Shown: positions 20,229 through 46,403, counted from the stretch's first letter. The stretch is DNA of 64,000 nucleotides from a bacterium (GCA_020051955.1 JAGVQB010000045.1:1356-65355), one strand, 5' to 3'. Numbers and translations: made by a program. Notes: generated by a model not told the origin, from the letters alone.

Positions 20229-20303
20229 GCGGGTATCGTATAGCGGTTATTATTCCAGTTTTCCAAACTGGTGATGCGGGTTCGACTCCCGCTACCCGCT
20301 CCA
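20229..20303 (+). tRNA. tRNA-Gly (anticodon TCC), 75 nt
   Basis: Hand-folded cloverleaf: acceptor GCGGGTA/TACCCGC, anticodon stem CCAGT/ACTGG, loop TTTCCAA, T-arm GCGGGTTCGACTCCCGC, and an encoded CCA. Confidence 0.85.
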
Positions 20304-20402
20304 TCCCGTTCAAACATTGCGCCATCACCGTTAAACCGTTTGGAAGTGACAATGTCACTTCCTGTGGGGTTTACCGATTATGTCGCGGAGTTTGAACGGG
20401 AT
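20303..20402 (+). repeat. MITE-like ~100 bp element, copy A (13 bp terminal inverted repeats ATCCCGTTCAAAC / GTTTGAACGGGAT)
   Basis: Abuts the 3' end of tRNA-Gly. It is about 80 % identical to 46304-46403, with shared termini and a shared core CATCACCGTTAAACCG...GGTTTACCGATT. Confidence 0.7.
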
Positions 20403-20416
20403 CCATTTATCAACAC

Positions 20417-20470
20417 GGGACGTAGCTCAGCCCGCTTGTGCTCCCGCCATTAATGGATGCGCGGCTGGGA
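20417..20470 (+). pseudogene. tRNA-Pro 5' fragment (pseudo-tRNA)
   Basis: GGGACGTAGCTCAG matches the first 14 nt of the downstream tRNA-Pro, and GAGCGCCTG matches its D-stem/anticodon-stem junction. Foreign sequence lies in between, and there is no T-arm or acceptor 3' half. Confidence 0.45.
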
Positions 20471-20512
20471 GCGCCTGATCCACGGGTTTGGTCTGAAATA
20501 AAAACTTAATAT

Positions 20513-20588
20513 CGGGACGTAGCTCAGTAGGTAGAGCGCCTGGTTTGGGACCAGGAGGTCGCAGGTTCGAGCCCTGTCGTCCCGACCA
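20513..20588 (+). tRNA. tRNA-Pro (anticodon TGG), 76 nt
   Basis: Acceptor CGGGACG/CGTCCCG, anticodon stem CCTGG/CCAGG with loop TTTGGGA, T-loop TTCGAGC, discriminator A and encoded CCA. Confidence 0.85.
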
Positions 20589-20740
20589 TTCGACTACCGT
20601 TGTTTTTTACAACGGCAGTCGAATGTCCCGAGCGAGCGCTAGCGAGCCGAGGGGCTGGTGGGTAACAACCGCTCATGGTCTGCGACCGTGTTGTGAAAAG
20701 AAGAGACTGAGGGTTCAAGACTCACTGGCTTGACCAGACA

Positions 20741-20768
20741 AAAAAATCGACGATCGTCGATTTTTTTG
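20741..20768. terminator. bidirectional rho-independent terminator
   Basis: AAAAAAATCGACGATCGTCGATTTTTTT: a perfect palindrome flanked by an A-run and a T-run. Confidence 0.65.
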
Positions 20769-20812
20769 TCATCAATAACGTTTGGCAGAAGGCAGGTTAA
20801 ACATTCAATTTT

Positions 20813-20840
20813 AAAAACGGATCTATTCGATCCGTTTTTA
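20813..20840. terminator. bidirectional terminator at the 3' end of tRNA-Phe
   Basis: AAAAACGGATCTATTCGATCCGTTTTTAAA. Confidence 0.6.
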
Positions 20841-20842
20841 AA

Positions 20843-20917
<75 letters not shown>

Positions 20918-20983
20918 AAACAACTTTCAGAATTGGCAATCTGCCTAAACAAATGTGGCCCACCACGTCGCTCGCGAGCGACG

Positions 20984-21060
20984 TGGTGGGCGTGGATGGA
21001 CTCGAACCATCGACCTCAACATTATCAGTGTTGCGCTCTAACCACCTGAGCTACACGCCC
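20984..21060 (-). tRNA. tRNA-Ile (anticodon GAT), 77 nt
   Basis: The reverse complement reads GGGCGTGTAGCTCAGGTGGTTAGAGCGCAACACTGATAATGTTGAGGTCGATGGTTCGAGTCCATCCACGCCCACCA. The 32 bp hairpin at 20959-20990 overlaps the CCA end and acts as a terminator. Confidence 0.85.
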
Positions 21061-21356
21061 TTATTTTTTTGGCGTGTAGCGAAGGTGGTTGACCACCTGC
21101 CCGCCCACCATAGCCCGAAGGGCGACGGCGGGAGCTACACGCCCGTATGAATAACGTTCAGAATTGGCGATCTGCTCGCTCTTCGGTCGGAAACTCGCTC
21201 GCTGTAGGATTCACCTACACCTCGCGAGCTTTCCTTCCTGCAGAGCGTCGCATCTCATTTAATTCTGAACGTTATTCGTTTGAATGATTTGAAAGAACGG
21301 CGATACTATATCAAGGCATAAAAGTGTTGGCAAGGCTATTTTATACGTAAGGAAAT

Positions 21357-21390
21357 ATAAAAAGCGACACGCGTATCGTGTCGCTTTGCG
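21357..21390 (-). terminator. rho-independent terminator of the secreted-protein gene
   Basis: AAAGCGACACGCGTATCGTGTCGCTTT hairpin followed by a T-run on the minus strand, about 20 nt after the stop at 21412. Confidence 0.6.
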
Positions 21391-21411
21391 TTTAGAGGAG
21401 GACTCGCTTCA

Positions 21412-22317
21412 CTAGTCTTCGCGCGGCAGGCTTGCGAGCCACTCTCTTCTACCATTGAGTTTCGGGACGACCTCGACCTCGTATTCCCAGCCGTAATGCG
21501 CCGGGATCTCAAGAATCGATTCAGGATACGATGGCGATGTGAGTTGATGGCGTCCTCCATGATTGTCAGTGGCTATCACGGAGAACTTGTGACCTTTTTG
21601 CGCGCGAAGCATTCTTGTCCCTGGGAGAAGAATGACGCGGGCAGGTGAGGTCTGAATGGAGTACTTGTCGAAGCGCAAGAACTGGTCGCAGGCTTCGCTC
21701 AAGTTGATGACCGCGAGGCGCCGGAGCGTTACGCGAGTGACAACCAGACGTTCGCTTCCGCCCGTTCTCACAACCACCGGGTCTGGCGCGTCGTAGAGGC
21801 GATCATCGATCAGGAGCGTTCTTGGGAACTTGATTCTGACGCTGGTTGTCCCATCGTGCGGGATTCCCAGCCATCTCTCGCCGTTATTCCCCGGTTGCCA
21901 TGGCACGGCCTTGTCGATGACTAGTTCGCCACCGACCAGCCCGGATAGCTTGAGCGCGACAACGCGTTCGCACATTCCATCTGGAAGCGAACGTTGCTGG
22001 CGCACGTAGTCCTGTCGCATACCAAGCGGCATCCAGTCTCGAAGGGACACAGGGCTCTCCACGGAGCACTTCTCGGTCCACGAGTCGTGCAACGTGTTAT
22101 CTTCCGTCAGCGCATCGCCGTCGATCAGCTCGAAGGCAATCCAAAGCAAGCCGTCTTCTTTGCGCGATCGTGGGGCATCGTCGTTTGTTGTTGTGAACGA
22201 CGTCCAGATTGTGCCATCGTCCTCGAACGTTGATTGTGCCCCGGCAATCTCTGGGAAAAACCAGGCGATTGGGATGATGAGAATGAGGGCGAAGAGGTTC
22301 AAGCGGTTTCGTTCCAT
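21412..22317 (-). CDS. secreted hypothetical protein (301 aa) with N-terminal signal peptide
   Basis: ATG at 22317 with AAGGAGA 8 nt upstream. MERNRLNLFALILIIPIAWFFPEIAGAQS is a signal peptide. GC is about 58 %. No confident family; the ATDNHGG stretch is not diagnostic. Confidence 0.7.
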   Translation of the reverse strand: MERNRLNLFALILIIPIAWFFPEIAGAQSTFEDDGTIWTSFTTTNDDAPRSRKEDGLLWIAFELIDGDALTEDNTLHDSWTEKCSVESPVSLRDWMPLGMRQDYVRQQRSLPDGMCERVVALKLSGLVGGELVIDKAVPWQPGNNGERWLGIPHDGTTSVRIKFPRTLLIDDRLYDAPDPVVVRTGGSERLVVTRVTLRRLAVINLSEACDQFLRFDKYSIQTSPARVILLPGTRMLRAQKGHKFSVIATDNHGGRHQLTSPSYPESILEIPAHYGWEYEVEVVPKLNGRREWLASLPRED

Positions 22318-22441
22318 TTTCTTTTTCTCCTTGAGGCGGGAACGAAAAACCCATCTGCACACAATTGTGCGGATGGGGGGTTGGGTACTTATATTCCAGC
22401 ATGATTTTTTGATCCCGTCAACGGGGCTTCTGTGGAAAACT

Positions 22442-22470
22442 AAAAACATTCGGCAGTGCCGAATGTTTTG
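22442..22470. terminator. bidirectional terminator ~135 nt downstream of the 16S 3' end
   Basis: AAAAACATTCGGCAGTGCCGAATGTTTT: an 11 bp perfect stem flanked by A and T runs. Confidence 0.7.
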
Positions 22471-22601
22471 AAACCAATTCTCTACTTTGTGATTGCAACG
22501 TGTATTCCCTTGCTCGGTCTTTAAACCGAACTGTTCTGATCAATCTGATTGATCTCGACCTAGGAACATGTCCCGACCCTTAGGTCAGGAAAAATCCCTA
22601 A

Positions 22602-24505
<1,904 letters not shown>

Positions 24506-24781
24506 TGCTTTGGGTCTTACGACCTCAAAGCTCTGTTGTTTTGTGACTTTTGTCACTACTAGGAATAACGTTGCAATCACACAGTAGATAATTGTGTGAT
24601 TTGGTAGATTGGTTTGTTTAGTTGTAAAGATCCAGCAAGAGACATTTTTAAAACCCTCGCAGGGCCTCCCCCGGGAGAGCTTCTTTTGGAACGTATATTT
24701 GTAACTTGCGGGCGCATTTTAGAAAAAGCACGTAATACTGTCAAGGACACATTGGGGAAAGGGTGGAGAAAGGTGTTTTCT

Positions 24782-24810
24782 TTGACAAAACAAGATGTTT
24801 TTGTTATCTT
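24782..24810 (+). promoter_or_regulatory. sigma70-like promoter for khpA-trmD (TTGACA-17-TATCTT)
   Basis: TTGACAaaacaagatgtttttgtTATCTT lies about 105 nt upstream of the khpA-like start. Confidence 0.5.
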
Positions 24811-24916
24811 ATTGTTGTTCATTACCTTTGTCTCTGGCGTGCATCCATGCTCGCGGGTCGACAGAAAAAGATAAGGTTAATGATTACTTGATTCGATAAT
24901 AGTCGATGCAACAGCT

Positions 24917-25294
24917 ATGGCTGACAAGCTTTTCGACCAGGAGTTCGTCGAATACATCGTGCGCGCGATCGTCAATCATCCAGAGGACGTCCGCACCGAG
25001 CGTATTGTTGACGAACGTGGCGTGCTCATCACCCTCTTCATAAACCAAGAGGACATGGGTTACGTAATTGGTCGCCAGGGTCAGACTGCTCGTTCTGTGC
25101 GGACTCTGCTCAAGATCGTTGGCGCAAAGGAGAATGCCCGCGTCAACCTCAAGATCTATGAGCCAGAAGGCGCACGCCGCCCACCACGTCGTGAAGATCG
25201 TCCAGGCGATGATCGCACTCCTCGCGACGATCGTGGACCACGCGATGACTTCCGTCGTAGTGACGACACGTCTGTAGATGATCTGGGTATCTAG
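24917..25294 (+). CDS. khpA: KH-domain RNA-binding protein (KhpA/UPF0109-like) with R/D-rich low-complexity C-terminal tail
   Basis: VIGRQGQTARSVRTLL carries the GXXG loop of a type II KH fold. The N-terminal roughly 80 aa is KhpA-sized. It sits upstream of trmD, as in the canonical rpsP-khpA-rimM-trmD neighbourhood. Confidence 0.75.
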   Translation: MADKLFDQEFVEYIVRAIVNHPEDVRTERIVDERGVLITLFINQEDMGYVIGRQGQTARSVRTLLKIVGAKENARVNLKIYEPEGARRPPRREDRPGDDRTPRDDRGPRDDFRRSDDTSVDDLGI

Positions 25295-25304
25295 ATCAAA
25301 AACC

Positions 25305-25345
25305 AAAAACCAGCTACTCTAATCGGTAGCTGGTTTTGATTTTAT
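25305..25345 (+). terminator. hairpin plus T-run between khpA and trmD (terminator/attenuator)
   Basis: CCAGCTACTCTAATCGGTAGCTGG stem-loop followed by TTTTGATTTTATTTTT, ending 5 nt before the trmD ATG. Confidence 0.5.
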
Positions 25346-25349
25346 TTTT

Positions 25350-26084
25350 ATGGCAAAGAAAAAGATTCGACGTTTCGACATTCTGACAATTTTTCCAGAA
25401 ACAGTGACGCCCTATGTTCAGGCGTCGATTTTGGGTCGCGCGCAGGAGGCTGGGTTGATTGAGGTTAAGACGCATGACCTTCGCGTGTGGTCGACTGATA
25501 AGCATCATAAAGTTGATGACACGCCATATGGCGGGGGCCCTGGGATGGTGATGAAGGTTGAACCGTTTGAGAGGGCGGTGAGGGAACTCAAGGGAGGAGG
25601 GGTGAGGGGTGAGGGGAGAGGGAGGAGGGAGGAGGTGAGAGGGAAGACGCGGGTGATTCTTACGTCGGCTTCTGGTGAGACGTTCACTCAGAAAGACGCG
25701 AAGAGGTTGGAAAAGTACGATCACCTTATCTTTTTGTGCGGTCGTTATGAGGGAGTTGATCATCGCGTAGAAGAGTATGTCGCGGATGAAGCGTTTTCGA
25801 TCGGGGAGTATGTTTTAACTGGCGGTGAGTTACCTGCAATGGTGATGATAGACGCGATCGCGCGTCTGGTGCCTGGTGTGATTGAAAAAGATTCGCTCGC
25901 GCGCGAGTCGCATAGCAAGAAAGGTTACCGCGAGCATCCACAATATACGAAGCCCGCGGTTTACAGTCCCGGGGCTAGTGGGAGGGGTAAGACGATTGCA
26001 CAGTGGGAGATTCCCGACGTCCTTCTCTCCGGCGATCACAAAAAAATCGAGGAGTGGCGCAACAAACATTCAGTTACAAAATAA
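25350..26084 (+). CDS. trmD: tRNA (guanine37-N1)-methyltransferase
   Basis: FDILTIFPE, TPYGGGPGMVMKVEP and YEGVDHRV...VLTGGELPAMVMIDAIARLVPGV are TrmD SPOUT motifs. It also contains a G-rich low-complexity insert, KGGGVRGEGRGRREEVRGKT. Confidence 0.92.
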   Translation: MAKKKIRRFDILTIFPETVTPYVQASILGRAQEAGLIEVKTHDLRVWSTDKHHKVDDTPYGGGPGMVMKVEPFERAVRELKGGGVRGEGRGRREEVRGKTRVILTSASGETFTQKDAKRLEKYDHLIFLCGRYEGVDHRVEEYVADEAFSIGEYVLTGGELPAMVMIDAIARLVPGVIEKDSLARESHSKKGYREHPQYTKPAVYSPGASGRGKTIAQWEIPDVLLSGDHKKIEEWRNKHSVTK

Positions 26085-26108
26085 CGACCCAGTGTGGGTC
26101 GTTTGTGT
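26085..26108. terminator. bidirectional terminator between trmD and the convergent hypothetical gene
   Basis: CGACCCAGTGTGGGTCG hairpin followed by TTTGTGT. Confidence 0.55.
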
Positions 26109-26122
26109 CTAGAACGCTGTCT

Positions 26123-26551: not shown

Positions 26552-26611
26552 CACATCCTCCTGCGGACTTAGACAGACACCGCGCCGCGCGGTGTGTCTC
26601 TGTGTACGAGG

Positions 26612-27667
26612 CTAGTCGAAATTGGCGGGATTGTCAATGGATAGTTGCCCGCAGGCGGCCGTTATATCAGCACCCATCGCGCGGCGCACAGTGGCAGTGA
26701 CGTTATTTTTTTGTAGGGAGTCGTGGAAGGCGGTGATCGTTGTGTCATCAGAGCGTTCAAAATCAACACCTGTCAGGTTGTAGGGGATGAGGTTTACTTT
26801 TATGCGGCCGATTCGGTTTACAAAAGTTGAAAGCGCCTTGGCGTGAGTGGGGGAATCGTTTACTCCCTTGAGCATAACGTATTCGAAAGTGAGGTGATGG
26901 CGTCTGTTGCCGTGGAGCTTGAGATAATTCTTTGCCCAGCGTTCAAGTCCAGGCAGAAATTCATCGTAAGAAGTTGGTACGATTTGTTTGCGCGTTGATT
27001 CGATCGCGGAGTGGAGAGAAACAGCCAGGCGCACAGGCGGCCATTGTTTGTCAGTGAGGATTTGTTCCAGGCGCGGGAGTATGCCAACAGTTGAAACGGT
27101 AATGTGCGTGGGACCAATGTCGGTTTTTGCAAGCAATGTGTTGAGCGCGCCGCGGACTTCTTCGTAGTTCGCAAGTGGTTCTCCCATGCCCATTATTACG
27201 ATATTGGAAATGCGAGGCGAGGTGGTGAGGTGGTCAGGTGGTAAGGTGTTTTCGGAATACATTTTCCAAAAACGATATTGATCAACAATTTCATCACTTG
27301 AGAGGTTGCGCGTGAGTCCCATCTTTCCAGTCGCGCAAAAACTGCATCGCATCGCGCAACCAACCTGCGAGGACACGCAGATCGTCCATGCCCCACGCCG
27401 GTTGGCCATAAGCACACTCTCGATTTGTTTGCCACCCTCCACGTTGAGCAGAGCTTTGTGCGTTTCGCCATTCGCGCTGACTTGAATGTTGGCAAGCCCA
27501 ACCGACAGCCATGGGATTTCCTTGAGGCTCTCGCGCATGGATTTGGGAATTGTCGTTGCTTCATCCCAACCATTGGCAGACGAAAAAAGCGCGTCCTCGA
27601 TTTGCTTCCAGCGAAAAGCCGGTTCGTTTGGGAAAAGTTTTTCGAATTGAGTTTTGCGTGTCTCCAT
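26612..27667 (-). CDS. rlmN: 23S rRNA/tRNA (adenine-C2)-methyltransferase, radical SAM (RlmN/Cfr family)
   Basis: Radical-SAM cluster CAMRCSFCATG, plus GMGEPLANY and the C-terminal Cys region. 351 aa, the size of RlmN. Confidence 0.88.
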   Translation of the reverse strand: METRKTQFEKLFPNEPAFRWKQIEDALFSSANGWDEATTIPKSMRESLKEIPWLSVGLANIQVSANGETHKALLNVEGGKQIESVLMANRRGAWTICVSSQVGCAMRCSFCATGKMGLTRNLSSDEIVDQYRFWKMYSENTLPPDHLTTSPRISNIVIMGMGEPLANYEEVRGALNTLLAKTDIGPTHITVSTVGILPRLEQILTDKQWPPVRLAVSLHSAIESTRKQIVPTSYDEFLPGLERWAKNYLKLHGNRRHHLTFEYVMLKGVNDSPTHAKALSTFVNRIGRIKVNLIPYNLTGVDFERSDDTTITAFHDSLQKNNVTATVRRAMGADITAACGQLSIDNPANFD

Positions 27668-27712
27668 AAAATAATAGGCGAGAGCTTCTGCTCCCGCCTA
27701 TATTATATCTGA

Positions 27713-28175: not shown

Positions 28176-28381
28176 TGTCTCTTCTGTTTATTGTGAGAAG
28201 GGAGGAATTCCTCAATTGAGTGACTTATTTCCTGGTAGCCGCAGGCTTTAGCCTGTGTGCGATTCACGCGGCGCAGGCTGTAGCCTGCGGCCGCCACGGA
28301 AAGAATCGGCCGTTCAGTTGAGGGATTCATCCCCTGCCGTTGCTCATCCCGAGCGCGGTGCAAGTAAAGAGGTACGAGAAG

Positions 28382-28849
28382 ATGTCCAAGAACGTTGCCA
28401 TGCTCGTCTGCGCGGTTCTGTTCTTCCTCGCGGCCGTCGCCCAGGTGGCGCACGCCGACGAGACTTCGGTCGCGCCCGCGACCGTCTCGGTCACCTACGC
28501 CGGCGAGGAGTGGAAGCCCGGCAAGGCACTGGGCATCTGCGTCCAGACGGGTCTGCGGTCGAAGGGTCTACTCGGCGACTACTCCGTGGTCTTCAGCTTC
28601 ACCACGGAGAGCGTCATGACGTCGAGAGAGAGGTTCTGGGGTGCTCTTAGCTTCCTCCTCATCGACAGCGACGAGAACCTGATCTCCATGGCCTTCGGGC
28701 AGGAGGTCGGGGAGACGGCTGAGGAGTTGAAGCAGAGAGCGATCGGAGGAGACAAGCTGTCTCCAGGCGGTCGCTACTTCCTCTCGACCTGCGAGACACT
28801 CACGAATACCGTCGTGAGCTTCGTCCCGCGGGCGGAGGTGAAGGAGTAG
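28382..28849 (+). CDS. small secreted hypothetical protein (155 aa), very GC-rich
   Basis: ATG at 28382 with AAGAGG upstream. Signal peptide MSKNVAMLVCAVLFFLAAVAQVAHA. Sample lines give 65-73 % GC. Confidence 0.6.
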   Translation: MSKNVAMLVCAVLFFLAAVAQVAHADETSVAPATVSVTYAGEEWKPGKALGICVQTGLRSKGLLGDYSVVFSFTTESVMTSRERFWGALSFLLIDSDENLISMAFGQEVGETAEELKQRAIGGDKLSPGGRYFLSTCETLTNTVVSFVPRAEVKE

Positions 28850-29921
28850 GACGGAACCGGAACTAAGACAAGAAACGGGGGGTGCGGAGGAACGTCGATG
28901 GACGACGACAGGGAGCTCATGAGGGATCTGGTGGAGATCTGGGTGGTAACCACCCTGTTTCAACTCCTCCTTTTCTGTGGGGCGTACCTGATAGGGTACT
29001 TCTTCACCGGGTTCTCGAGTTGAGTCCACGGAACCTGGAATGCGTCCGCGTGGCGCCAGGTTTCAAATCAACGCGGCGGATCGCAGTTCACCAGATCCGA
29101 GTATTCGCAACCGAGCTCGTAGGTGGAACGGGCTCAAATGGAGTAGACATGGGCTACAGCTAGAAGGAAGCGTCTGGAGGTCGTAAGACCAAGTCACGGC
29201 CAGGCGTGGATACATAAGTGACCCGGCGTACTATGCGAGGTTGCCAGACGTGAGAGTTAGGAACGGAAAGGGACAGAAAGCCCGAGTACAAGTACGAAGC
29301 GATACCGTCTGAAGCAATCACTCGAGAGCAATCTCGGGACGTCGGGGAGTGGTAACACTCCGAAGGGTCGCGCCAAAGCATGGGAGCCGTTGACAGTGAA
29401 GGCTCAAAGGGCTGGCAACCCAATCTGTCAAAAAGGCCTTGTGAGTTTGGCCTCCTGTCTACGGACGGGTCAAATGAACTCTCCTTGGTTGTGGCGGTCA
29501 ACAACCCGTTTTCAATCCGCGTTTTAAGAAAAACGAGGACTTTGGTCGGCAGAGTTCGACACGGCGCGCGAGACGTTCTTGCGCCACTTGCCAGCGGTGT
29601 ATCACTGGCAGACTCGCATTTCGCGAGCGGGGAATTGTGTGGCGCCCTTAAAGGCCACTTTGCAGAAGGAGGTCAGAAATGACTTACCCGTTGCTGTTCT
29701 ACGATGTTACAAACGCGCTTTCCCCTGAGCGCGCCAAAAAACCAAAGGTAAGGGGGTAAGGATCTCGGCCGTCAACGTGACAAAACGGCCGGGGATCCTA
29801 ACGATACTTTCCCCGGTCGCTTGGGCGCCTCCCGCGTCCATCACGTTGCGTTCCGGGGTCCTCTACCGAAATGCTGATTGTTACATCGCGTACCAATCGG
29901 CAGGTCAGTTGAGAGAAACAT
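28850..29921 (+). other. ~1.07 kb GC-rich segment without credible ORFs (candidate structured RNA or foreign remnant)
   Basis: All six frames are broken into ORFs shorter than 115 codons with implausible composition. There are many local hairpins. A 26-codon sORF with a perfect AAGGAGG Shine-Dalgarno sequence sits at 29679-29759. The segment ends at a strong terminator at 29922-29948. Confidence 0.4.
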
Positions 29922-29949: not shown

Positions 29950-30216
29950 TTATAGATGGTGATAGATATCTTTGCGATGGCAGATTCTGTGTAGAATAAT
30001 TTTTGATCGATCGAATGTATAAATTAAACGGTAGTCACCCACACGTAAGCGCCAAAGTGGCGGACGTGTGAACCCAGAAAGTTTTTTAATGTCGAGCGTC
30101 GCATTGATTGGGTTTAGTTGAAGTAGCTTTGCGATCACGTCTGCCTTAATTTGTATTTGGATCGGAAGACTACGAAAATCCTTCGTGAATTGCCGAGTCA
30201 CGACGATCTCTCGCAT
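29950..30216 (-). CDS. relE: RelE/ParE-family type II toxin (88 aa)
   Basis: RLRVGDYRLIYTFDRSKIILHRICHRKDIY matches the conserved RelE/ParE C-terminal core. Confidence 0.8.
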   Translation of the reverse strand: MREIVVTRQFTKDFRSLPIQIQIKADVIAKLLQLNPINATLDIKKLSGFTRPPLWRLRVGDYRLIYTFDRSKIILHRICHRKDIYHHL

Positions 30217-30219
30217 ACT

Positions 30220-30414
30220 TTAAACGAGCTCGCGAAGGGAACGCACTGTTCGCGTCTTTCCTTGCGTGGCTTCTTTAATAGAACGTCGCAACCCCTTTTG
30301 AAACACTGGGTCAAAATCGCCAGACCTCTCAAGGATATCTTCCACTAGATTTGCAAGATTCAAACTTGCACGAAAGATGCGGCGTAATTTTAGTTGAGTT
30401 ACAGTTTGGTTCAT
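30220..30414 (-). CDS. putative cognate antitoxin (RHH/ParD-RelB-like, ~64 aa)
   Basis: Small ORF ending 3 nt before relE, at ATG 30414. MNQTVTQLKLRR... has antitoxin-like size and position. The family assignment is tentative. Confidence 0.5.
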   Translation of the reverse strand: MNQTVTQLKLRRIFRASLNLANLVEDILERSGDFDPVFQKGLRRSIKEATQGKTRTVRSLRELV

Positions 30415-30517
30415 ACATACGCAAGTTAACACGGAGTAAAGCTAGGAGTCCAGTTTTTTGTTGATTCCTTTCTCCGTTTGGGTTTTGGATTTTGGTTTTT
30501 TGGATTTTTCGGTTTCA

Positions 30518-32788
30518 TTACCTCCTCGCAACCCCATTCTGCGTGATTTCCTCCAGGTGGACTGACAACAAGCTCGAAATGCCGTCAGTGCCCATTGTTA
30601 CGCCATAGAGAATATCTGCTTTTTCCATTGTCGCGCGGTTGTGGGTGATGACGATGAATTGGCTAGTGCGCGCGAGGTCCTCCAGGATCGCGGCGAAGCG
30701 GATTGTGTTGGCTTCATCAAGCGCGGCATCAACCTCGTCGAGCACAACAAACGGCGCTGGGTTTACTGCCATGATTGCGGAGACAAGAGCGATTGATGTA
30801 AGCGCGCGCTCACCACCGGAAAGCAGGTTTAACGCCTTGAGCCTTTTCCCAGGCGGGGTTGCTTGGATGTCGATGCCGACAATTTTTTCCTCCGCGTTTA
30901 CCCGTTCCCTGTTCACCGTTCCCTGTTCACTGTTCCCTCCCTCTACCGTTTCCTCCACCTCTTCCCTCGTCAACTTCACCAACGCGCACGATCCTCCACC
31001 GAAAAGCATTTTGAAATATCGCTCAAACTCTTTATTGATTTTGGAGAACGTTGCCTTTGACTGTTTTTCAATTTGTTCGTCGAGTTCCTTGATTATTTTT
31101 TCTGTTGACGCGAGAGCGGCGTTGAGGTCTTTGACCTGCTCATCAAGAAATTCGAAACGATCTTTTGTCTCGCCGTATTCTTTTACTATTTCCGGATCAA
31201 TTCCACCTATGAGTTCGAGCTTGTATCGAAGGCGCTGGATTTCGGGATAGGCTTCATCGGTTTGGATTTTGGATTTTGGATTTTGGATTTTTTCCTGCCT
31301 CACCCCCACCGCCCTCTCCTTCATAAACTCATCCATCTCCCGCGTGAGGGCTTTTTGGCGTTCCTCAAAACGCACTAAAGCGATTTGGAGAGTGTTGCGC
31401 TCGTTTTCTAGCAAGTGGGTTTGATTTTGTTTTTCGCGCAGGGAATGTTGCAAGCCGATAAGTTCACTTCGGGCAGTGCGTTCCTTACTTGTGTAGTTGT
31501 CGATTGTTTTTTCAAGCTCGTCAATTTCTTTTACTAGATTTTGTTCTTGCGTTCGCTTGGTTTTCAGTTCCTCAACCATTTTTGGATCAGGCTTGATGTC
31601 TTCTGGGTTTGGGCGCTGAAGACTTTTGGAAAGTTTTTGTGACCGCGTAAGAAGTGACTCGATTCCATCCAAAATTGCCTCCAGCCCTTTCAGCCCTCGC
31701 AGTCCTTTTAGTCCTTCCACCATTCCCTCAACCTCCTCAACGATTTTCAACAAAGGAAGCGGCGCCCAATTTGATTGCGCGCGCGCTCGCGCGAGTTCGA
31801 TTTCTTTTTCGAGCGAGAATTGCTCGCTCCGCAAAGCCTCACGTTTTTTTCCAAGCGCTTTGTATTGATTCTTCAAACCTACCAGTTGTGTGTCCTCATC
31901 GGTCCCAAAGTTTTCAGCGCGCTCTGATTCTTTTTCAAGCGTGTGAAGTTCTGCCCTCTCGGTTTTAATTTTTTTCTCAATCTCATCAAACCCCTGTCTT
32001 GCTGTTTCCAATTCGTCCATCAGGTTCCACCATTGAGAACCGTAATAACACGACTCAAGCTCGTGGAGGGCTTTTTCAATCTCACCGCGTTGTTCAAGAC
32101 GTACTGCTTGGCGCTTAAGAGAACGAAGCCGCGGTTCGATTTCCCGCAACAGCATTTCAACCTCTGTCAGATTTTCGTGTGTGCGCGTGAGTTTTAACAA
32201 TGCCTCGTGTCGTTTGATTTGGAATGGTTTTACTCCGGTGGCATCGTCAAAAAAATCTTTGCGCTCCTCTGGAGATGAAACAAGAATGTGGTCAATCATG
32301 CCTTGTCCGATAACGCAGTACGAACGCTGTCCAACGTTTGCTTCTGCCAGAAGTAGTTGGATATCAGCAAGGCGAACAGAGCCCTCGTTGAGGAGATAAT
32401 CGGAAGTTCCATCTCGAAACAGCCTCCGCGTGATTACTACCTCTGGGTATTCAAGTGGCATTGTTTTGTCTTGGTTGTTGAAGGTCAAAGATACTTGCGC
32501 AAAGCCAGATCGTCCTTTGCCATCAGAGCCAGAAAAAATTACATCCTCTGATTTTTTTCCACGCAAAAGTTTAAGACTTTGTTCACCCAGCACCCATCTG
32601 ATCGCGTCAGCAAGGTTTGATTTACCGCTACCATTTGGACCAACGATGGAGGTGATGGGGAATCGTAATTCCCCCCCTGCCCGAGGGGGGGTCAGGGGGG
32701 GTGGGAGTGCGGCCGGTGGGAGAAAAGAAAGCGTTGTTTTTTTTGCAAACGTTTTGAACCCCTGCAGTTCCAGTTTAGTAAGAAACAT
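30518..32788 (-). CDS. SMC/RecF-superfamily ATPase with long coiled coils (SMC-like, 756 aa, no obvious hinge) carrying several low-complexity inserts
   Basis: N-terminal Walker A (GPNGSGKSNLADAIRWVLGEQS), a long heptad-rich middle, and C-terminal signature plus Walker B (LSGGERALTSIALVSAIMAVNPAPFVVLDEVDAALD). The inserts LPPAALPPPLTPPRAGGELR, KIQNPKSKIQ and VEETVEGGNSEQGTVNRERVNAE are encoded by simple repeats. Confidence 0.8.
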   Translation of the reverse strand: MFLTKLELQGFKTFAKKTTLSFLPPAALPPPLTPPRAGGELRFPITSIVGPNGSGKSNLADAIRWVLGEQSLKLLRGKKSEDVIFSGSDGKGRSGFAQVSLTFNNQDKTMPLEYPEVVITRRLFRDGTSDYLLNEGSVRLADIQLLLAEANVGQRSYCVIGQGMIDHILVSSPEERKDFFDDATGVKPFQIKRHEALLKLTRTHENLTEVEMLLREIEPRLRSLKRQAVRLEQRGEIEKALHELESCYYGSQWWNLMDELETARQGFDEIEKKIKTERAELHTLEKESERAENFGTDEDTQLVGLKNQYKALGKKREALRSEQFSLEKEIELARARAQSNWAPLPLLKIVEEVEGMVEGLKGLRGLKGLEAILDGIESLLTRSQKLSKSLQRPNPEDIKPDPKMVEELKTKRTQEQNLVKEIDELEKTIDNYTSKERTARSELIGLQHSLREKQNQTHLLENERNTLQIALVRFEERQKALTREMDEFMKERAVGVRQEKIQNPKSKIQTDEAYPEIQRLRYKLELIGGIDPEIVKEYGETKDRFEFLDEQVKDLNAALASTEKIIKELDEQIEKQSKATFSKINKEFERYFKMLFGGGSCALVKLTREEVEETVEGGNSEQGTVNRERVNAEEKIVGIDIQATPPGKRLKALNLLSGGERALTSIALVSAIMAVNPAPFVVLDEVDAALDEANTIRFAAILEDLARTSQFIVITHNRATMEKADILYGVTMGTDGISSLLSVHLEEITQNGVARR

Positions 32789-40616: not shown

Positions 40617-40648
40617 CCTCGACTTGGGGTCAGTTTTTTTAAAGTTTG

Positions 40649-40675
40649 AAAAACCCGCGAAGAGTCGCGGGTAGG
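40649..40675 (-). terminator. rho-independent terminator of the Gmad2-domain protein gene
   Basis: CCCGCGAAGAGTCGCGGG hairpin followed by a T-run on the minus strand. Confidence 0.55.
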
Positions 40676-40778
40676 TGCTGAATGGAGTCGGTTCTGACCC
40701 CAGGTGATTCTCGCTCATGCCCGTTCATCAAGGCCGTTCCTTTTATGTTGAGAGCGTATTGAATTTTTTGGGAAAAAA

Positions 40779-41981
40779 CTATTTGCCGATAATGACAGGA
40801 ACACTGAGTTCGTCATCATTTTCAGGAAGTCCGGAAGGGTCATCTTTTTGCAAAACGAGAGTCCCCGCTTTGCCAATGTTTTGCAGATTCGTCGCAAAGG
40901 TGATCGTGGCTTTAAAGGGGACGAAATCGCTCGTCATCCAATCATCTTGCGCTTGTGCAACGCACCACCCGAGTGTATTTCCTTTGTAGTCAAGGAGGAG
41001 TATTGGGAAACTTGCCTCAAAAAACCAGTAACCGCGCGCTTGCCCGGTGATGAGAAGTGGACTGCTGACAACGGTGTTGGGCAAGGGAGAATCGAGGATT
41101 ATGCTACTTGTATGTTTTTCCGTTTCCTCTGACCAGACAATCATTTTCATGCCGGGGATTTGGAGGATATTTACCTCAACTTGTGGCTTGCAACTGCACA
41201 TACTAATAGAGATGCCGGTCCATGCGTCTATGGGAGAGATGGTGACGACGCCGTCCTTTTCCGTAAACATTGTTTGACCGATAATTGTGTTGCACATGCC
41301 CGTCGTTCCCGCATCAATAGTTGCGCGTATGACTTCCTCGGTAGTCGGATTTGGTTTGGAAATGGTGCCCATATGGGCAATAGTGAGCGATGAACGATAT
41401 CCCGCACTATCCATTTTTTCTCCGTCACAATAGGCGGTTGTCTCAGCCTGCGATGTTAGATAGGTGAACGTGTAATCAGAAAGAGTCGTTGTTTGAAGAA
41501 TATTATCTCGCACCGCAAGTGCTATACTTTTGCCTATGGAAGGAGTCATGGCCATGGGTTCGTCCTCAGCCACCACGGCATATGTGGCAATGATTGTTCC
41601 CGCATCAATCGTGATGTTTTGTGGGGTAACGCGATCGCCAAGAAAAACGGCGTTTGTACCAAGTGCGCCGTCTGAAGTGTTCAGTGCTGTTACGATATAA
41701 TAAAAAGCTCCGGTTCCCTCGCTTGTTTGTTTAAGAAAAAAAATTGCGTCTTCAACTCCATCATCATTTATGTCTCCATTCGTTACCTCCCCAAATATTT
41801 CCGTAGTATCTGTTTTTCCATCGACAAGATTTACTTGATCATTTGAGACTGTGTAAGTTGCGTTACGAGGATCAAACTGTGCGGAAGTAGTGGGTTTATG
41901 TGAGTACGATAGGAAAGCTCCATAGAGACAACCTCCAAGAATAACCGGAATCGCGACTGCGATAAGAATTTCTTTTTTCAT
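40779..41981 (-). CDS. secreted or lipid-anchored protein with C-terminal Gmad2 immunoglobulin-like domain
   Basis: Signal/anchor MKKEILIAVAIPVILGGC. The C-terminal ITGQARGYWFFEASFPILLLDYKGNTLG matches the Gmad2 motif (GxARG.WFFEA...L.D). Confidence 0.7.
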   Translation of the reverse strand: MKKEILIAVAIPVILGGCLYGAFLSYSHKPTTSAQFDPRNATYTVSNDQVNLVDGKTDTTEIFGEVTNGDINDDGVEDAIFFLKQTSEGTGAFYYIVTALNTSDGALGTNAVFLGDRVTPQNITIDAGTIIATYAVVAEDEPMAMTPSIGKSIALAVRDNILQTTTLSDYTFTYLTSQAETTAYCDGEKMDSAGYRSSLTIAHMGTISKPNPTTEEVIRATIDAGTTGMCNTIIGQTMFTEKDGVVTISPIDAWTGISISMCSCKPQVEVNILQIPGMKMIVWSEETEKHTSSIILDSPLPNTVVSSPLLITGQARGYWFFEASFPILLLDYKGNTLGWCVAQAQDDWMTSDFVPFKATITFATNLQNIGKAGTLVLQKDDPSGLPENDDELSVPVIIGK

Positions 41982-42010
41982 AATTTTTCGTTACCGGATG
42001 ATTATCAAAA

Positions 42011-42355
42011 TTACTTAACTTTTTTATCTTTTGGTTTTACCACCCTCCGAATCGTTTTAACAATATCTTTGACAAAGGGATTAGTTTGTTCAATTCTAGG
42101 AAAAACCTTTTTTCCTTCGCGTTCTTTTTGAAGAAGACCGGCCTGTTCTAAAACTTTGATATGTTGAGAAATCAGAGGCAAAGAAAGGCCTAAAATCTCG
42201 GCAAGATCACTGACGGACACTTTTGGTTGTTCGGCTAAAATACAAAAAATTCTATATCGGCTGACCTCACTAAGCGCTTTAAAAGCTACGACCATATTTT
42301 TGTCGTTTTGAATAGAAAGGGCATCTATTATCCGGGTTTCTTTTTTCCGCAACAT
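42011..42355 (-). CDS. ArsR/SmtB-family transcriptional regulator
   Basis: FKALSEVSRYRIFCILAE...VSDLAEILGLSLPLISQHIKVLEQAGLL is a winged-HTH of the ArsR type. Confidence 0.85.
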   Translation of the reverse strand: MLRKKETRIIDALSIQNDKNMVVAFKALSEVSRYRIFCILAEQPKVSVSDLAEILGLSLPLISQHIKVLEQAGLLQKEREGKKVFPRIEQTNPFVKDIVKTIRRVVKPKDKKVK

Positions 42356-42436
42356 AAGTTAAATATTTAAGCAACTGTTTAATAGCTGAAAGGTACACCA
42401 TAAGGAATCATCTGTCTATGAAGGTAAAAAAATGGG

Positions 42437-42494
42437 TCAGATTCGACTTCCGACTTTTTTTGAACAATGTAAAAAGTTGGAAGTCGGATCTGAC
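42437..42494. promoter_or_regulatory. 16 bp inverted repeat (GTCAGATTCGACTTCC / GGAAGTCGGATCTGAC) with 26 bp spacer in the arsR divergent promoter region; candidate operator
   Basis: Near-perfect dyad located between arsR (minus strand) and the paralogous small genes (plus strand). Confidence 0.45.
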
Positions 42495-42576
42495 CTCAGG
42501 AGATCCCTGCATTGACCGATATAAGACAGGCTGATAAATTATTCGTGGCAAGGAAACAACGAAACGGAGAGAGAAC

Positions 42577-42954
42577 ATGATTCGCATGAAGTACCATTTG
42601 CTGATTACGCGAAAGGGTCAAGCTGAAGGCGCGACCGTCGAAGTCGAGGCTGAGTACACCAACGTGGAGGATGTGGTCACGGACATCCTGTCAGTGGTGA
42701 ATGTGTTCGGAAATGGAAGCCGCGCGAGCACCGCTCAACGACTTGCGACAGTGAGCTCTTCGAAAATCCTCTCGCAGATCAAGGATCTCGATCCCTCTTC
42801 GAAGATCATCATCCATGGTGGAAGGGAAGTTGAGGAGGGAATCCCCGAGGGGCTGGTGAGAGACCCCGGAGCACTCTTCTCTGTTGCCTGTTGCCGGGCG
42901 TGGGGGGACCGACGCGAGGACGCGGCGAGGGAAGCGCGTCGCAACCGCGAGTAA
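42577..42954 (+). CDS. small hypothetical protein, paralog 1 (GC-rich)
   Basis: GGAGAG lies upstream. The N-terminus MKYHLLITRKGQAEGATVEVEAEYTNVEDVVTDILSVV parallels paralog 2. Confidence 0.55.
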   Translation: MIRMKYHLLITRKGQAEGATVEVEAEYTNVEDVVTDILSVVNVFGNGSRASTAQRLATVSSSKILSQIKDLDPSSKIIIHGGREVEEGIPEGLVRDPGALFSVACCRAWGDRREDAAREARRNRE

Positions 42955-43088
42955 CTGGGTAACGGTATTGTGGCTTGCATCAGCGAAAATATCGTAACCG
43001 AGTAATGGCGAAGGTAGGTCGTTGGCTCTTGACCGATCGTCAAAAAGCTGGTAGGTTTTTGTGGCTAGGAACCTGCAAAAAGAGAGGA

Positions 43089-43382
43089 ATGAAAATGCCG
43101 ACGATGAAGTACAACGTCCTGATCGGTGACGACGGCGAACGGCGCGAGGTGGTGGTCGAGTACTCCGACATCACCGCGCTGGTGAGGGACATTCTCGACG
43201 TAGGGAGGATCCATTCGCCGACAGCGCGCACCAGTGAAAGGGATCGTGTGGAGAGTGCGTCGGGTTTGCCGCTTCTCAAGGCGCTCACGGACTGGCGACC
43301 CGGGGATTCGGTCACGATCCTCAATGCGGAGGAAGCACCACTCCGAAGTCGAGAATTCTTCGACGTGGCCTTCACTGGTTAG
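43089..43382 (+). CDS. small hypothetical protein, paralog 2 (GC-rich)
   Basis: GAGAGG then ATG at 43089. The N-terminus MKYNVLIGDDGERREVVVEYSDITALVRDILDVG is alignable with paralog 1. Confidence 0.55.
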   Translation: MKMPTMKYNVLIGDDGERREVVVEYSDITALVRDILDVGRIHSPTARTSERDRVESASGLPLLKALTDWRPGDSVTILNAEEAPLRSREFFDVAFTG

Positions 43383-43506
43383 TTGCCCCGTACACGATTC
43401 GTGCGCCTGTGAAATACCAGGCGTTTTATTTTTGGAAAAATAAAACCGCCCGTTTATCTTCCGCACGTGGGTGCGGCCGATTTTGGGCGGAGAGAGAACG
43501 TCTGAC

Positions 43507-45138
43507 CTAGTGTGCCGCCTTGCCCTTGGGGATCGCCTTGCGGATGAGCACGCACAGCACGAACCCTATCACTGCTGGCGGGATCATCCACAGCGGCCAA
43601 TCTGACCAGTTGTGCCAGTCAGCGGCCGCCGCCTCCCTGGGAAGCCTGGCACCGTACCAGAATGCCATGAGTGAACTTCCCAGGTACACGCATCCGTCGA
43701 TGATGCCCACTGCGATGCCCGCGTTCTTGGATCCGCCGAAGTCCTGCGTCGCTGTCCCAGAGAGCATTCCGTGCACGCCGATGACGCACAGGGACGCGAT
43801 CAGGCACAGCCACATCACAGCGGCGTTCCCAAGCACGAAGTACATCACGCACGCGCACGCGATCATGCCGCCGTAGAGTATGGCCGCGACCGGTCCGCGT
43901 CTTGATTCAAAGAACCTGTCACTGATGATGCCTGCGAACATGCCACCGAGGATTCCCGCCAGGCAAAGGAGCATACCCCAGTGAGGCTCGAGGTATGAGC
44001 CAACGTGGGTTGCCTTCATGAAGCTTGGTCCCCACTGCATGATCGCCTGCCTGACGAAGCCAGTGCAGAACTCGATCGCGGCTACCGCGACGATGATCGG
44101 GTTGCGCGCCATCATCAGGAAGACCTTGTGAGGCGGGTTTGTTGGTCCCTTCTCGCCAGATGTCGCATCTCCTGTGTCGAAGTCCTCGAGCCCAGCATCC
44201 TTGGGTGAGTTGCGGATGAGCTTGTGGCCAACCACGAAGCTCACGCACAGGATGGCTGCTGGGACAAAGAACACGAGGTGGACCTGGTGCTCCCAGATCT
44301 TGAGGAGTAGACCGTTCCAGTCATAGGCAAAGTAGAGTCCAAGCGAGATCAGGATCCCGAAGATGGCACCAAAGACTCCACGTTCCTTCACGTGGAACCA
44401 CGGCGAGTTCACCTTGACGATGGCGACAGCGCCGAAGCTCTGGAAGTACATATTGATCGCGTAAAGAACACAGAGGGCAGGCATGAGCTTGGAGGTGGCA
44501 CTCACATTGTGCTCGATACCGAAGAGCCCACGGAACCAGACGAAGCCGCTGAAGATCGGCTTGGCGAATTCATTCACCACGTTACCAAGCGCGCCGATTT
44601 CTCCGTTGCTTCTCACGACTTCCCACGCCACGACGCCCATCAGGACATTGGCGATGATGACCCCAGCGGCCGAGATCAGGATCGTCAGCCTTCCGCCGTA
44701 TCGGTCAGTGAGCGGACCATTGAGCAAGAACGACAGTCCATACACCAACGTGCCGATCCCGAAGATGATCCCGAAGTCAGCGTTGTCCATGAGACCGAAC
44801 TGGCTGAACTCCTTCTTGCTCACTGTCAGGTTGTAGCGCGCCATGTAGAGGAACGCGTAGATCGCTCCTAGTGGAACCCAGTTCATCACCCGTCTCTTGA
44901 TGAGGTCGGGCTTGAGATGGTCCATCGCGAGCTTGGGTTGACGCGCGAACACGAACACGATGACAACGAGCAGAAGCAGGATTGGGAGGAACTCCTTCAG
45001 GGAGATCAGGAACACGCTTTCCTTGCTTGTACCTGCCTCTTGCGCGGCAAGTGCGAGCGTTGGGAAGAGACTCATTGCCAGGGCAGAAAGAGCTACGAGA
45101 ATTTTGGACACCGGCGCCTCCTTGTGGGTTTTGCCCAC
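43507..45138 (-). CDS. MFS transporter, organophosphate:Pi antiporter (GlpT/UhpC)-like
   Basis: 543 aa with 12 TM helices. YMARYNLT...YGLSFLLNGPLTDRYGGR resembles the OPA-family N-terminal signature. GC is about 56 %. Confidence 0.7.
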   Translation of the reverse strand: MGKTHKEAPVSKILVALSALAMSLFPTLALAAQEAGTSKESVFLISLKEFLPILLLLVVIVFVFARQPKLAMDHLKPDLIKRRVMNWVPLGAIYAFLYMARYNLTVSKKEFSQFGLMDNADFGIIFGIGTLVYGLSFLLNGPLTDRYGGRLTILISAAGVIIANVLMGVVAWEVVRSNGEIGALGNVVNEFAKPIFSGFVWFRGLFGIEHNVSATSKLMPALCVLYAINMYFQSFGAVAIVKVNSPWFHVKERGVFGAIFGILISLGLYFAYDWNGLLLKIWEHQVHLVFFVPAAILCVSFVVGHKLIRNSPKDAGLEDFDTGDATSGEKGPTNPPHKVFLMMARNPIIVAVAAIEFCTGFVRQAIMQWGPSFMKATHVGSYLEPHWGMLLCLAGILGGMFAGIISDRFFESRRGPVAAILYGGMIACACVMYFVLGNAAVMWLCLIASLCVIGVHGMLSGTATQDFGGSKNAGIAVGIIDGCVYLGSSLMAFWYGARLPREAAAADWHNWSDWPLWMIPPAVIGFVLCVLIRKAIPKGKAAH

Positions 45139-45237
45139 GTTTTTGAGTGTCTGTTTGCCGTGAGCGAACGGCAGTATTGACCCTAATACGACAGAGGGAA
45201 ATGTGCAAACAAAAAACCGAGGAGGTACCTCGATTAT

Positions 45238-45708
45238 TTATTGGAGTGGATGACGGCGAAGTTGAGCGGCTGTTTCAGCGTCAATTGATGTCGAGGAGCT
45301 GTAAAAACTTAGAGCCTTGTCGCGAGATCCTCGTATCTCTTCATCGCGCACGTTATCGAGAGCGTCTTGTGACTTTTGCCATTCTTGCAATAGCCGGTCA
45401 GCCTCACCATTTTTTGATCGCCCAAGACGTTCATTAAGAGAGGCTTGTTTGTATTTTGCTTCTGCAAGAAGGACCTTTGCTATCTCGACACTTCCACGCC
45501 CACCTTTACCACGAGATGCTTCTTGCTGTGCTTGCGCGACTTTTTGTTCGAGACCCAATATCTTGCGCACGCCTGTTTCGACTGGGTCTTCGCGATATGT
45601 AAAATCAGCTACCCGTTCTTTTCCGCCAGTCGCCTTAATATCCGGCACCTCCTCAAATACAATTCCTTCATCTGGCGCGGATTCCCTGCGTGGTCTGCCG
45701 AACGCCAT
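45238..45708 (-). CDS. hypothetical charged protein (156 aa)
   Basis: ORF following the lipoprotein gene on the same strand, with a terminator at 45206-45232. No family. Confidence 0.45.
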   Translation of the reverse strand: MAFGRPRRESAPDEGIVFEEVPDIKATGGKERVADFTYREDPVETGVRKILGLEQKVAQAQQEASRGKGGRGSVEIAKVLLAEAKYKQASLNERLGRSKNGEADRLLQEWQKSQDALDNVRDEEIRGSRDKALSFYSSSTSIDAETAAQLRRHPLQ

Positions 45709-45713
45709 AGAAA

Positions 45714-46184
45714 TTATTTTATCGCTCTTATTACTGTGATCGAAGTCTGCCCATCCATTTCACTTACAGCCACCGAAATTATAACATCGCCTTTTTGAAA
45801 CACCTTCATAAGTCTTCCGTTGTAATTGGAATCAGTTTCCATCTCCCACCCATCGCCCAAGAGTTCGTCTTCATACCACTGCGCGACAGAAGCTAGACTA
45901 GCGGTCGTCGTCGAGAGAAGCGTCGCGCCTTGGTTTGGGATAACTGATGCGGCGAGGATTTGCGCGCCTTCATACACAGGCACGTCAGATGGAAAGTCGT
46001 TTGGGATTTGCGCGTTTTCGCCAATGCTCGCGTACGCGCCAGTCTCTTTGTCTTCGTAGGTATAAGTGTCGTCCGCGATGTTGATTTCACCAGAGTCGCT
46101 TGGTTGCGCGGTTTGTTGAGTACGGTTAAAACATCCGCCACCAATGAGCACAAGGGTAAAGAGTGGGAACAGGAGAAATTTCAT
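45714..46184 (-). CDS. putative lipoprotein (signal peptide plus LIGGGC lipobox-like)
   Basis: MKFLLFPLFTLVLIGGGCF followed by a Thr/Ser/Asp-rich mature domain. Confidence 0.55.
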   Translation of the reverse strand: MKFLLFPLFTLVLIGGGCFNRTQQTAQPSDSGEINIADDTYTYEDKETGAYASIGENAQIPNDFPSDVPVYEGAQILAASVIPNQGATLLSTTTASLASVAQWYEDELLGDGWEMETDSNYNGRLMKVFQKGDVIISVAVSEMDGQTSITVIRAIK

Positions 46185-46303
46185 AAGATGGTCGAACATA
46201 CCACTTAAGGACCGATCGGACCTTAAATGGTATGAGTTATTGTTAAAAGTTTTGAAATAAGTGATGATTGTTACTACTTTACCATTATTTTAAGCTCAAT
46301 TCC

Positions 46304-46403
46304 ATCCCGTTCAAACACCGCGTCATCACCGTTAAACCGCTGACAAGTGACGTCGTCTCTTCCTGCGCGGTTTACCGATTTTGGCGCAGCGTTTGAACGG
46401 GAT
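46304..46403 (+). repeat. MITE-like ~100 bp element, copy B, in the typA leader
   Basis: ATCCCGTTCAAACACCGCGTCATCACCGTTAAACCG...GGTTTACCGATT...GCGTTTGAACGGGAT. It is about 80 % identical to 20303-20402 and shares the same 13 bp termini. Confidence 0.7.

Follow-up and report, generated by a model that had tools for sequence, protein, structure and literature searches.

A 100-nt palindromic repeat of probable MITE type at two loci of a Candidatus Uhrbacteria genome

Introduction

Prokaryotic miniature inverted-repeat transposable elements, or MITEs, have been defined as sequences of 50–800 bp that carry terminal inverted repeats of at least 10–15 bp, are flanked by a 2–10-bp target duplication, encode no transposase and are located mainly in intergenic regions (PMC11602168; for a review, PMC10969869). 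The window examined here, i.e. the whole 64-kb stretch of bacterial DNA that was analysed (GCA_020051955.1 JAGVQB010000045.1:1356-65355), contains two copies, 26 kb apart, of a non-coding imperfect palindrome of 100 nt, one following a tRNA-Gly gene (copy A) and the other preceding typA (copy B). We consider it reasonably probable that these two segments are copies of a small hairpin-forming repeat of MITE type, in other words of a non-autonomous DNA transposon. The element resembles MITEs by its length of 100 bp, its 13-bp repeats, the short direct repeat that flanks it, the lack of a transposase gene, its intergenic location and its stable hairpin. It differs from them in that only two copies are documented, no partner insertion sequence was found in the window or in the loci of relatives, the candidate duplication is perfect in only one copy and no sequence relative was found in the collections searched.

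Several other families of small interspersed repeats invite comparison. The Correia elements (CREE) of Neisseria (see also PMC10969869) measure ~100–155 bp, carry terminal inverted repeats, often lie immediately upstream of genes and display promoter-like hexamers at their termini, just as an outward TTGAAC is found at every end of the element described here. However, they have 26-bp repeats, a TA duplication and hundreds of copies, they share no sequence similarity with the element, and the promoter, IHF-site and RNA-processing effects are documented for Correia elements alone. The ERIC and RUP elements are imperfect palindromes of ~100–130 bp over nearly their full length, which are intergenic and often co-transcribed as hairpins with neighbouring genes; RUP has a TA target and is of IS630 type. 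ERIC, also known as IRU, measures 127 bp in enterobacteria and RUP 107 bp in Streptococcus pneumoniae (PMC3184786, PMC3049150). The element is likewise an intergenic imperfect palindrome of ~100 bp over nearly its full length, but ERIC and RUP belong to other phyla and show no sequence similarity with it, and the copy numbers of ERIC are far higher. Finally, REPs are 20–40 nt long, and the elements of IS200/IS605 type lack terminal inverted repeats and generate no duplication. Like REP/BIME repeats, associated with RAYT proteins, and IS200/IS605 elements, the element belongs to hairpin-forming interspersed repeats, and an insertion beside a fixed short sequence is conceivable, as TCCA is found to the left of both copies; it is, however, longer than REPs and does carry terminal inverted repeats, and no Y1 transposase gene was found among the window open reading frames (ORFs) scanned.

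Copies and ends of the element

Copy A (20303–20402) and copy B (46304–46403), both on the plus strand and therefore in direct orientation, align without any gap and differ at 17 of 100 positions (83% identity). The repeat finder reports a single family of 107 nt at 83% identity (20300–20406 and 46301–46407), and blastn of one copy against the other within the window gives E=3.5e-15 (83% identity over 104–107 nt), a similarity that is not due to chance. A covariance model built from both copies scores copy A at 118.8 bits and copy B at 115.5 bits. The similarity ends 3–4 nt beyond the element and the flanks are otherwise unrelated, which excludes a segmental duplication; the sequence-only reading, an earlier examination of the same DNA, had considered a local duplication taking flanking sequence along with it, and this is not what is seen.

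Each end of each copy consists of the same perfect 13-nt inverted repeat, ATCCCGTTCAAAC, a sequence with exactly four occurrences in the whole window: at 20303–20315 and 46304–46316 on the plus strand (left ends) and at 20390–20402 and 46391–46403 on the minus strand (right ends). The two direct copies, their 13-bp terminal repeats and the core blocks that they share, as seen in the copy alignment, are thus as originally described. According to the repeat finder, the arms of each copy are 80–81% self-complementary over 35–37 nt. All the differences between the copies are found in the interior (17 of 74 positions) and none in the termini (0 of 26; hypergeometric P=0.0035), which is the pattern expected if the termini are recognition sites for a protein. 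Furthermore, each arm includes two similar motifs, CCGTTCAAAC at the terminus and CCGTTAAAC ~20 nt inward, and it is a matter of speculation that they could be repeated binding sites. The TTGAAC hexamer faces outward at every terminus, that of the right repeat of copy B included, and at copy B it forms, together with a flanking TAAAAT, a promoter-like site on the minus strand (9/12 matches).

When the flanks of both copies are compared in a common register, short direct repeats appear: TCCA/TCCA at copy A (20300–20303 and 20402–20405) and, with one mismatch, TCCA/TCTA at copy B (46301–46304 and 46403–46406). When flanks are taken from the window at random, six registers being allowed for, 0.15% of the sets give an equally good match. 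If these tetranucleotides are counted as a target-site duplication, the element is 98 bp long (TCCCG...CGGGA; 20304–20401 for copy A and 46305–46402 for copy B), and a 4-bp duplication accounts for all of the shared flank bases behind the apparent repeat length of 107 nt. An inspection of the flanks for such duplications had been proposed, and what it yields is a candidate duplication that is perfect in one copy only. As both copies are located at the identical tetranucleotide TCCA, a duplication is indistinguishable from a slightly longer repeat unit or from a fixed target.

The element shows no coding capacity, since only frame 0 of the plus strand (up to a near-terminal stop) and frame 1 of the minus strand are open in both copies and neither of them has an ATG, GTG or TTG start. 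Nor does it look like an intrinsic terminator: it is devoid of any T tract and was not flagged by the terminator scan.

Folding of the two copies

Each copy is predicted to fold as RNA into a single long imperfect hairpin, with minimum free energies of -51.4 kcal/mol (z = -8.1) for the plus strand of copy A and -47.2 kcal/mol (z = -6.8) for that of copy B. The minus strands fold as well or better (-50.7 kcal/mol for copy A and -55.0 kcal/mol for copy B), and the DNA folds of both copies resemble the RNA folds. In the balance of G-U against A-C pairs, copy A leans towards its plus strand (3 versus 1) and copy B towards its minus strand (1 versus 4); this opposite asymmetry provides no evidence of selection on one RNA strand.

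Thirty-five pairs are common to both folds. None of them is changed on both sides; in one case U-G has become C-G, and two further pairs are lost in one of the copies, so that the test for covariation over the 35 shared pairs of the two copies found none and the differences close to the terminal stem, previously taken to be partly compensatory, turn out not to be so. Differences between copies affect 13 of 30 unpaired positions versus 4 of 70 paired ones, a contrast that is partly circular as the structure was derived from these two sequences. Searches of the element against Rfam, at gathering and E-value thresholds, returned no family and only generic hairpin noise. Globally, the fact that neither strand is consistently better folded, together with the unlike transcriptional contexts of the two copies (see below), argues for a DNA-level element over a shared RNA function.

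Host genome and orthologous sites in relatives

TypA homologues place the host in Candidatus Uhrbacteria (Patescibacteria, also known as the candidate phyla radiation, CPR). One recorded homologue, on a contig of 71,192 nt, is identical, and the next relatives are 92% (L007), 88% (L003–L006), 86% (L008), 84% (L020) and 82% (L021 and L022) identical to the TypA of the window. The window carries housekeeping genes, i.e. rpoB/rpoC, ruvC, glycosyltransferase genes, an aspartate carbamoyltransferase gene, a tRNA cluster, 16S rRNA, trmD and the genes for S16, SMC and ClpP; it also includes typA, tsaD, a type II/IV secretion ATPase gene, ftsH, the gene for S1 and gyrA. A locus search seeded with the aspartate carbamoyltransferase returned archaeal loci only.

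Upstream of typA, the element is missing from seven relatives (L007, L003–L006, L008, L020, L021 and L022), whose sites can be aligned with that of the window through the promoter beside it and through a palindromic motif located close to the divergent gene. L007, the closest of them, has CTTCAATTCTTGACC at this site, where the window has CTCAATTCCA, the element and then TCTATCTTGACC; this comes near to an empty site, the spacers being too diverged for base-exactness. The junctions expected for empty sites in the window are GCTCCA/TTTATC and CAATTCCA/TCTTGACC. The element is also absent downstream of tRNA-Gly in two relatives, L015 and L017/L018. From these comparisons of sequence, both insertions read as specific to this Uhrbacteria lineage.

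Copy B and the typA promoter

The ATG of typA is located at 46447, and 43 nt, rather than the 44 initially counted, separate it from copy B. These 43 nt include, 3' of copy B, the probable typA promoter (46409–46437, plus strand), which consists of TTGACC (46409–46414), 17 nt and TACTCT (46432–46437). The same architecture, TTGAC[C/G]-N17-TAyyCT followed by 9 nt (11 in L003–L006) up to the typA ATG, is found in the window and in the same seven relatives, and copy B ends 5 nt upstream of the -35 box. With a conserved typA promoter lying between copy B and the ATG, the proposal that copy B is transcribed within the typA 5' untranslated region is unsupported. No Shine-Dalgarno sequence is present at the typA start, either in the window (46409–46449) or in relatives L003–L008 and L020–L022; the conserved promoter geometry suggests that the typA mRNA may be leaderless, or nearly so, in this Uhrbacteria clade.

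On the other side, ~20 nt to the left of copy B, lies the conserved block ACTTTAyCA, which reads TGrTAAAGT on the minus strand and resembles the -10 box of the divergent gene. Copy B is therefore likely to lie between two divergent promoters and outside the likely transcription units. Just before copy B, with its end 7 nt away, there is also a weak pair of promoter-like boxes, TTGTTA-N17-TAAGCT, which the promoter scan did not flag.

The palindromic motif mentioned above, ATAAGGnnCGATCGnnCCTTA (core GACCGATCGG), recurs near gene starts at 46202–46224, 8169–8191, 6707–6729 and 46410–46421. In L007 and L003 it is conserved upstream of the gene that diverges from typA, and it may be an operator or a promoter element.

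Copy A and the 3' end of tRNA-Gly

Copy A is located directly at the 3' end of an intact tRNA-Gly(UCC) gene with an encoded CCA (20229–20303, plus strand) and overlaps the terminal A of this CCA. The TCCA that is the candidate duplicated sequence corresponds to the discriminator base and CCA end of tRNA-Gly, and the tRNA-Gly gene is therefore left intact. Downstream of copy A are found a degenerate 5' part of tRNA-Pro (from 20416) and then an intact tRNA-Pro gene (20513–20588), so that the position first given for copy A, next to the CCA end and followed by a 5' fragment of tRNA-Pro, holds. Upstream of tRNA-Gly there is a conserved TAGTAT -10 box, and the first convincing terminators occur only after tRNA-Pro; copy A is thus probably included in a co-transcript that extends from tRNA-Gly to tRNA-Pro.

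In the degenerate 5' half of tRNA-Pro (20416–20512), ~38 nt of inserted sequence separate CGGGACGTAGCTCAG from GAGCGCCTG...GGTTTGG; relative L015 has no such partial copy. The relatives that lack the element after tRNA-Gly, L015 and L017/L018, have there a terminator hairpin with A and T tracts, a conserved insert of ~130–150 nt and a duplicated 20-nt 3' end of tRNA-Gly. This region covers 100–285 in L015 and 8795–8975 (minus strand) in L017, and in both the duplicated tRNA-Gly 3' end, GACTCCCGCTACCCGCTCCA, is followed by a second terminator. The structured insert, GCAAGCCrCCTGCGyGGCTTGCGTCGGGAGTCGAACGCCGGAGC..., has a stretch complementary to the 3' strand of the tRNA T-arm and acceptor, and a search of its L017 copy against Rfam gave no match. 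In this clade, the 3' end of tRNA-Gly seems to be a hot spot for insertions.

Nature of the element

The sequence-only reading left a choice between a small non-autonomous mobile element and a structured cis-regulatory RNA motif. The first term of this choice is favoured by the sharp ends, the perfect terminal repeats, the TCCA flanks, the empty orthologous sites and the non-coding nature of the element, and the second is disfavoured by the lack of covariation, the lack of a favoured strand and the location of copy B upstream of a promoter. By its size (98–100 nt), the lack of a transposase gene, its 13-nt terminal inverted repeats and its presence/absence polymorphism at orthologous sites, the element agrees with the definition of MITEs. 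Furthermore, a function in cis common to both copies is unlikely, as one is in the spacer of a tRNA operon and the other in the gap between divergent promoters. If the element is indeed a MITE, a transposase encoded elsewhere would bind the conserved 12–13-bp terminal inverted repeats (TCCCGTTCAAAC ... GTTTGAACGGGA) and mobilize it, presumably by cut-and-paste; the 98-bp element would insert at TCCA, these 4 bp being duplicated in the process, and would be retained where its insertion is harmless, i.e. in a tRNA spacer (copy A) or in a gap between divergent promoters (copy B). Copy A would probably be co-transcribed in the spacer preceding tRNA-Pro, then removed during tRNA processing, and any effect of either copy on neighbouring genes would come in addition.

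Several points nevertheless weigh against a MITE. Only two copies are known, both within the 64-kb window, in which blastn, nhmmer and the covariance model built from both copies detected no third one, and the same three methods found no related copy in ~155 kb from Uhrbacteria relatives. A scan for the exact termini gave no match in 185,579 species-representative genomes, although diverged relatives would escape exact matching; no match was found either in viral contigs, scanned with the exact termini pattern and a core pattern, or in plasmid and phage collections by blastn, and the exact-termini scan of JGI metagenome contigs gave two matches only (L001 and L002). The contig of the window itself was evidently outside the scanned collections. 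A comparison of 39 window ORFs, nearly all of which measure at least 150 aa, with Pfam revealed no transposase or integrase domain, and no autonomous partner with matching ends was found in the window, which has no other terminus, or in the loci of the relatives. The 17% divergence between the copies gives no sign of recent activity, the candidate duplication of copy B is imperfect (TCCA/TCTA), and the shared flank bases could instead be part of a 107-nt repeat unit. Lastly, repeats of ERIC or REP type, which may spread otherwise than MITEs do, are typically palindromic over almost their full length as well.

Both metagenome matches were rejected as relatives of the element. The L001 match, within coding sequence, was attributed to chance. 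The L002 match was attributed to chance or ascertainment, the motif being internal to a longer stem in a high-GC organism. At this second locus (Ga0193742_1000569, 2121–2231), a hairpin of ~110 nt follows a gene stop and occurs once; it has CCCGTTCAAACAC.GCG in common with the terminus of the element.

The alternative that survives best, although it is itself rather unlikely, is that of a hairpin repeat of ERIC, REP or SPRITE type, spread by an enzyme other than a DDE transposase, for example a hairpin-recognizing HUH/Y1 enzyme acting beside a fixed tetranucleotide, and retained as the transcribed hairpin affects RNA processing or stability. Indeed, nearly the whole element, and not only its ends, is self-complementary; the TCCA that precedes both copies could represent a fixed target instead of a duplication; copy A, downstream of the conserved TAGTAT box, is very probably transcribed in the spacer between tRNA-Gly and tRNA-Pro; and differences between the copies concentrate at unpaired positions, with the partial circularity already mentioned. 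However, TCCA or TCTA is also found at the right flanks, which a model invoking only a target does not predict, no RAYT or Y1 transposase gene was seen among the window ORFs scanned, copy B lies outside the likely transcription units and the element has no terminator-like T tract. A more specific and quite improbable scheme may be envisaged. According to it, the element would be the tip of a CPR-specific family of fully palindromic repeats that insert at TCCA, including tRNA CCA ends, and are mobilized by a hairpin-recognizing single-strand transposase instead of a DDE enzyme, the transcribed hairpin then serving as a signal for processing or insulation in tRNA operons and beside nearly leaderless genes; no test specifically supports it.

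It is very doubtful that the element is a structured RNA with a function of its own, either as a cis-regulatory leader for typA or as a small RNA derived from the 3' trailer of tRNA-Gly, whose hairpin would be under selection at the RNA level. The hairpin is certainly very stable (z = -7 to -8), copy A is in a tRNA spacer that is probably transcribed and copy B is preceded by the weak TTGTTA-N17-TAAGCT pair. Against this, no pair is compensatory, the minus strand folds as well or better and the G-U asymmetry is inconsistent between copies, no Rfam family matches, the element is absent at typA in seven relatives and after tRNA-Gly in two, and copy B is followed by the conserved typA promoter, which leaves almost no leader.

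The two copies are direct repeats and one of them adjoins the 3' end of a tRNA gene, an apparent hot spot where the insert of the relatives (130–150 nt) is followed by a duplicated 20-nt tRNA 3' end. These features call to mind the attL/attR-type boundaries of a 26-kb island that would have entered at the 3' end of tRNA-Gly, and the AAC...GTT of the termini loosely recalls the attC sites of integrons, which carry R''/R' boxes, RYYYAAC...GTTRRRY, at the base of their stem. Either interpretation is nevertheless highly improbable. What lies between the copies belongs to the core genome (16S rRNA, four tRNAs, TrmD, S16, SMC, ClpP and others), the relatives devoid of the element have their genes in the same order as far as typA, with synteny extending through the junction of copy B, and the repeats include no tRNA sequence beyond TCCA and are only 83% identical; moreover, no integrase was found among the ORFs scanned, and there is no cassette array. 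As for attC, TTCAAAC/GTTTGAA fits the consensus at 5/7 positions and, unlike in attC, pairing runs 6 bp beyond the AAC/GTT boxes. Chance similarity, or a local segmental duplication without mobility, for which it may be said that two copies are known, is so improbable that it can largely be dismissed given the identity and E value of the alignment, the unrelated flanks of copies located 26 kb apart in unrelated contexts and the empty orthologous sites of the relatives.

The MITE-type interpretation remains the one that we prefer. The sequence family is unmatched in the collections searched, but the kind of feature is ordinary, that of a genomic parasite. Full-text searches of the literature found no description of MITE-type repeats in CPR/Patescibacteria; as CPR genomes are usually called streamlined, a documented family of hairpin repeats would be a useful point for their annotation and could serve to mark strain-level variation, recombination or assembly breakpoints. 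Annotation of the element as a typA leader or as a riboswitch-like motif is to be avoided.

Other features of the window

A second and unrelated family of hairpin repeats, 94 nt long, has two copies in inverted orientation that are 93% complementary (15561–15654 and 48331–48424), and its presence indicates that the genome carries other small interspersed hairpin repeats. One copy begins 16 nt beyond the stop codon of an AftA-like gene and the other follows the typA terminator, both between convergent genes; the repeat is absent downstream of typA in relative L008.

Between rpoC and ruvC (region 6654–8191), the minus strand encodes an AbiEii/AbiEi toxin-antitoxin pair (6734–8031) bracketed by direct repeats of ~76 nt (6654–6729 and 8115–8191) that are 96% identical over 48 nt. 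In relative L017, rpoC adjoins ruvC and neither the cassette nor its repeats are present. The locus has the appearance of a cassette that was inserted with duplication of a flank. Beyond ruvC, and before the gene of a family-2 glycosyltransferase, lies an ORF of 1293 aa without any Pfam match (9212–13093).

The 16S rRNA match (22602–24505) covers 1904 nt for a model of 1533 positions, which implies insertions of ~370 nt in total. A 27-nt inverted repeat (22475–22501 and 24568–24594), probably a processing stem, flanks the match; the window contains no 23S rRNA gene. An ORF of 345 aa without Pfam match (21412–22449) is found between the 16S gene and tRNA-Ile.

The segment 28100–30450 is GC-richer (0.55) and is possibly acquired DNA. 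It includes a strong promoter, CTTGACAAAACGGTCAAAATATGATA, in common with L021, an ORF for a small secreted protein (28383–28849), ~870 nt without any ORF longer than 114 aa (29030–29900) and two small ORFs on the minus strand (29950–30432) that resemble a toxin-antitoxin pair. A search of this segment against Rfam at E<=0.1 returned nothing except one match to a hairpin of microRNA type (28228–28301). A conserved non-coding unit downstream of S16 was considered and dropped, only the 26-nt promoter being common with L021.

Finally, tandem repeats of 7–8 nt, of the GGTGGGGA / AGGGGTG and CTGTTCAC types, are found on both strands at 25591–25646, 27220–27251, 30895–30938, 52668–52699, 63611–63674 and 63940–63983, and a similar GGTGGTTAGG array is located next to S16 in L021.

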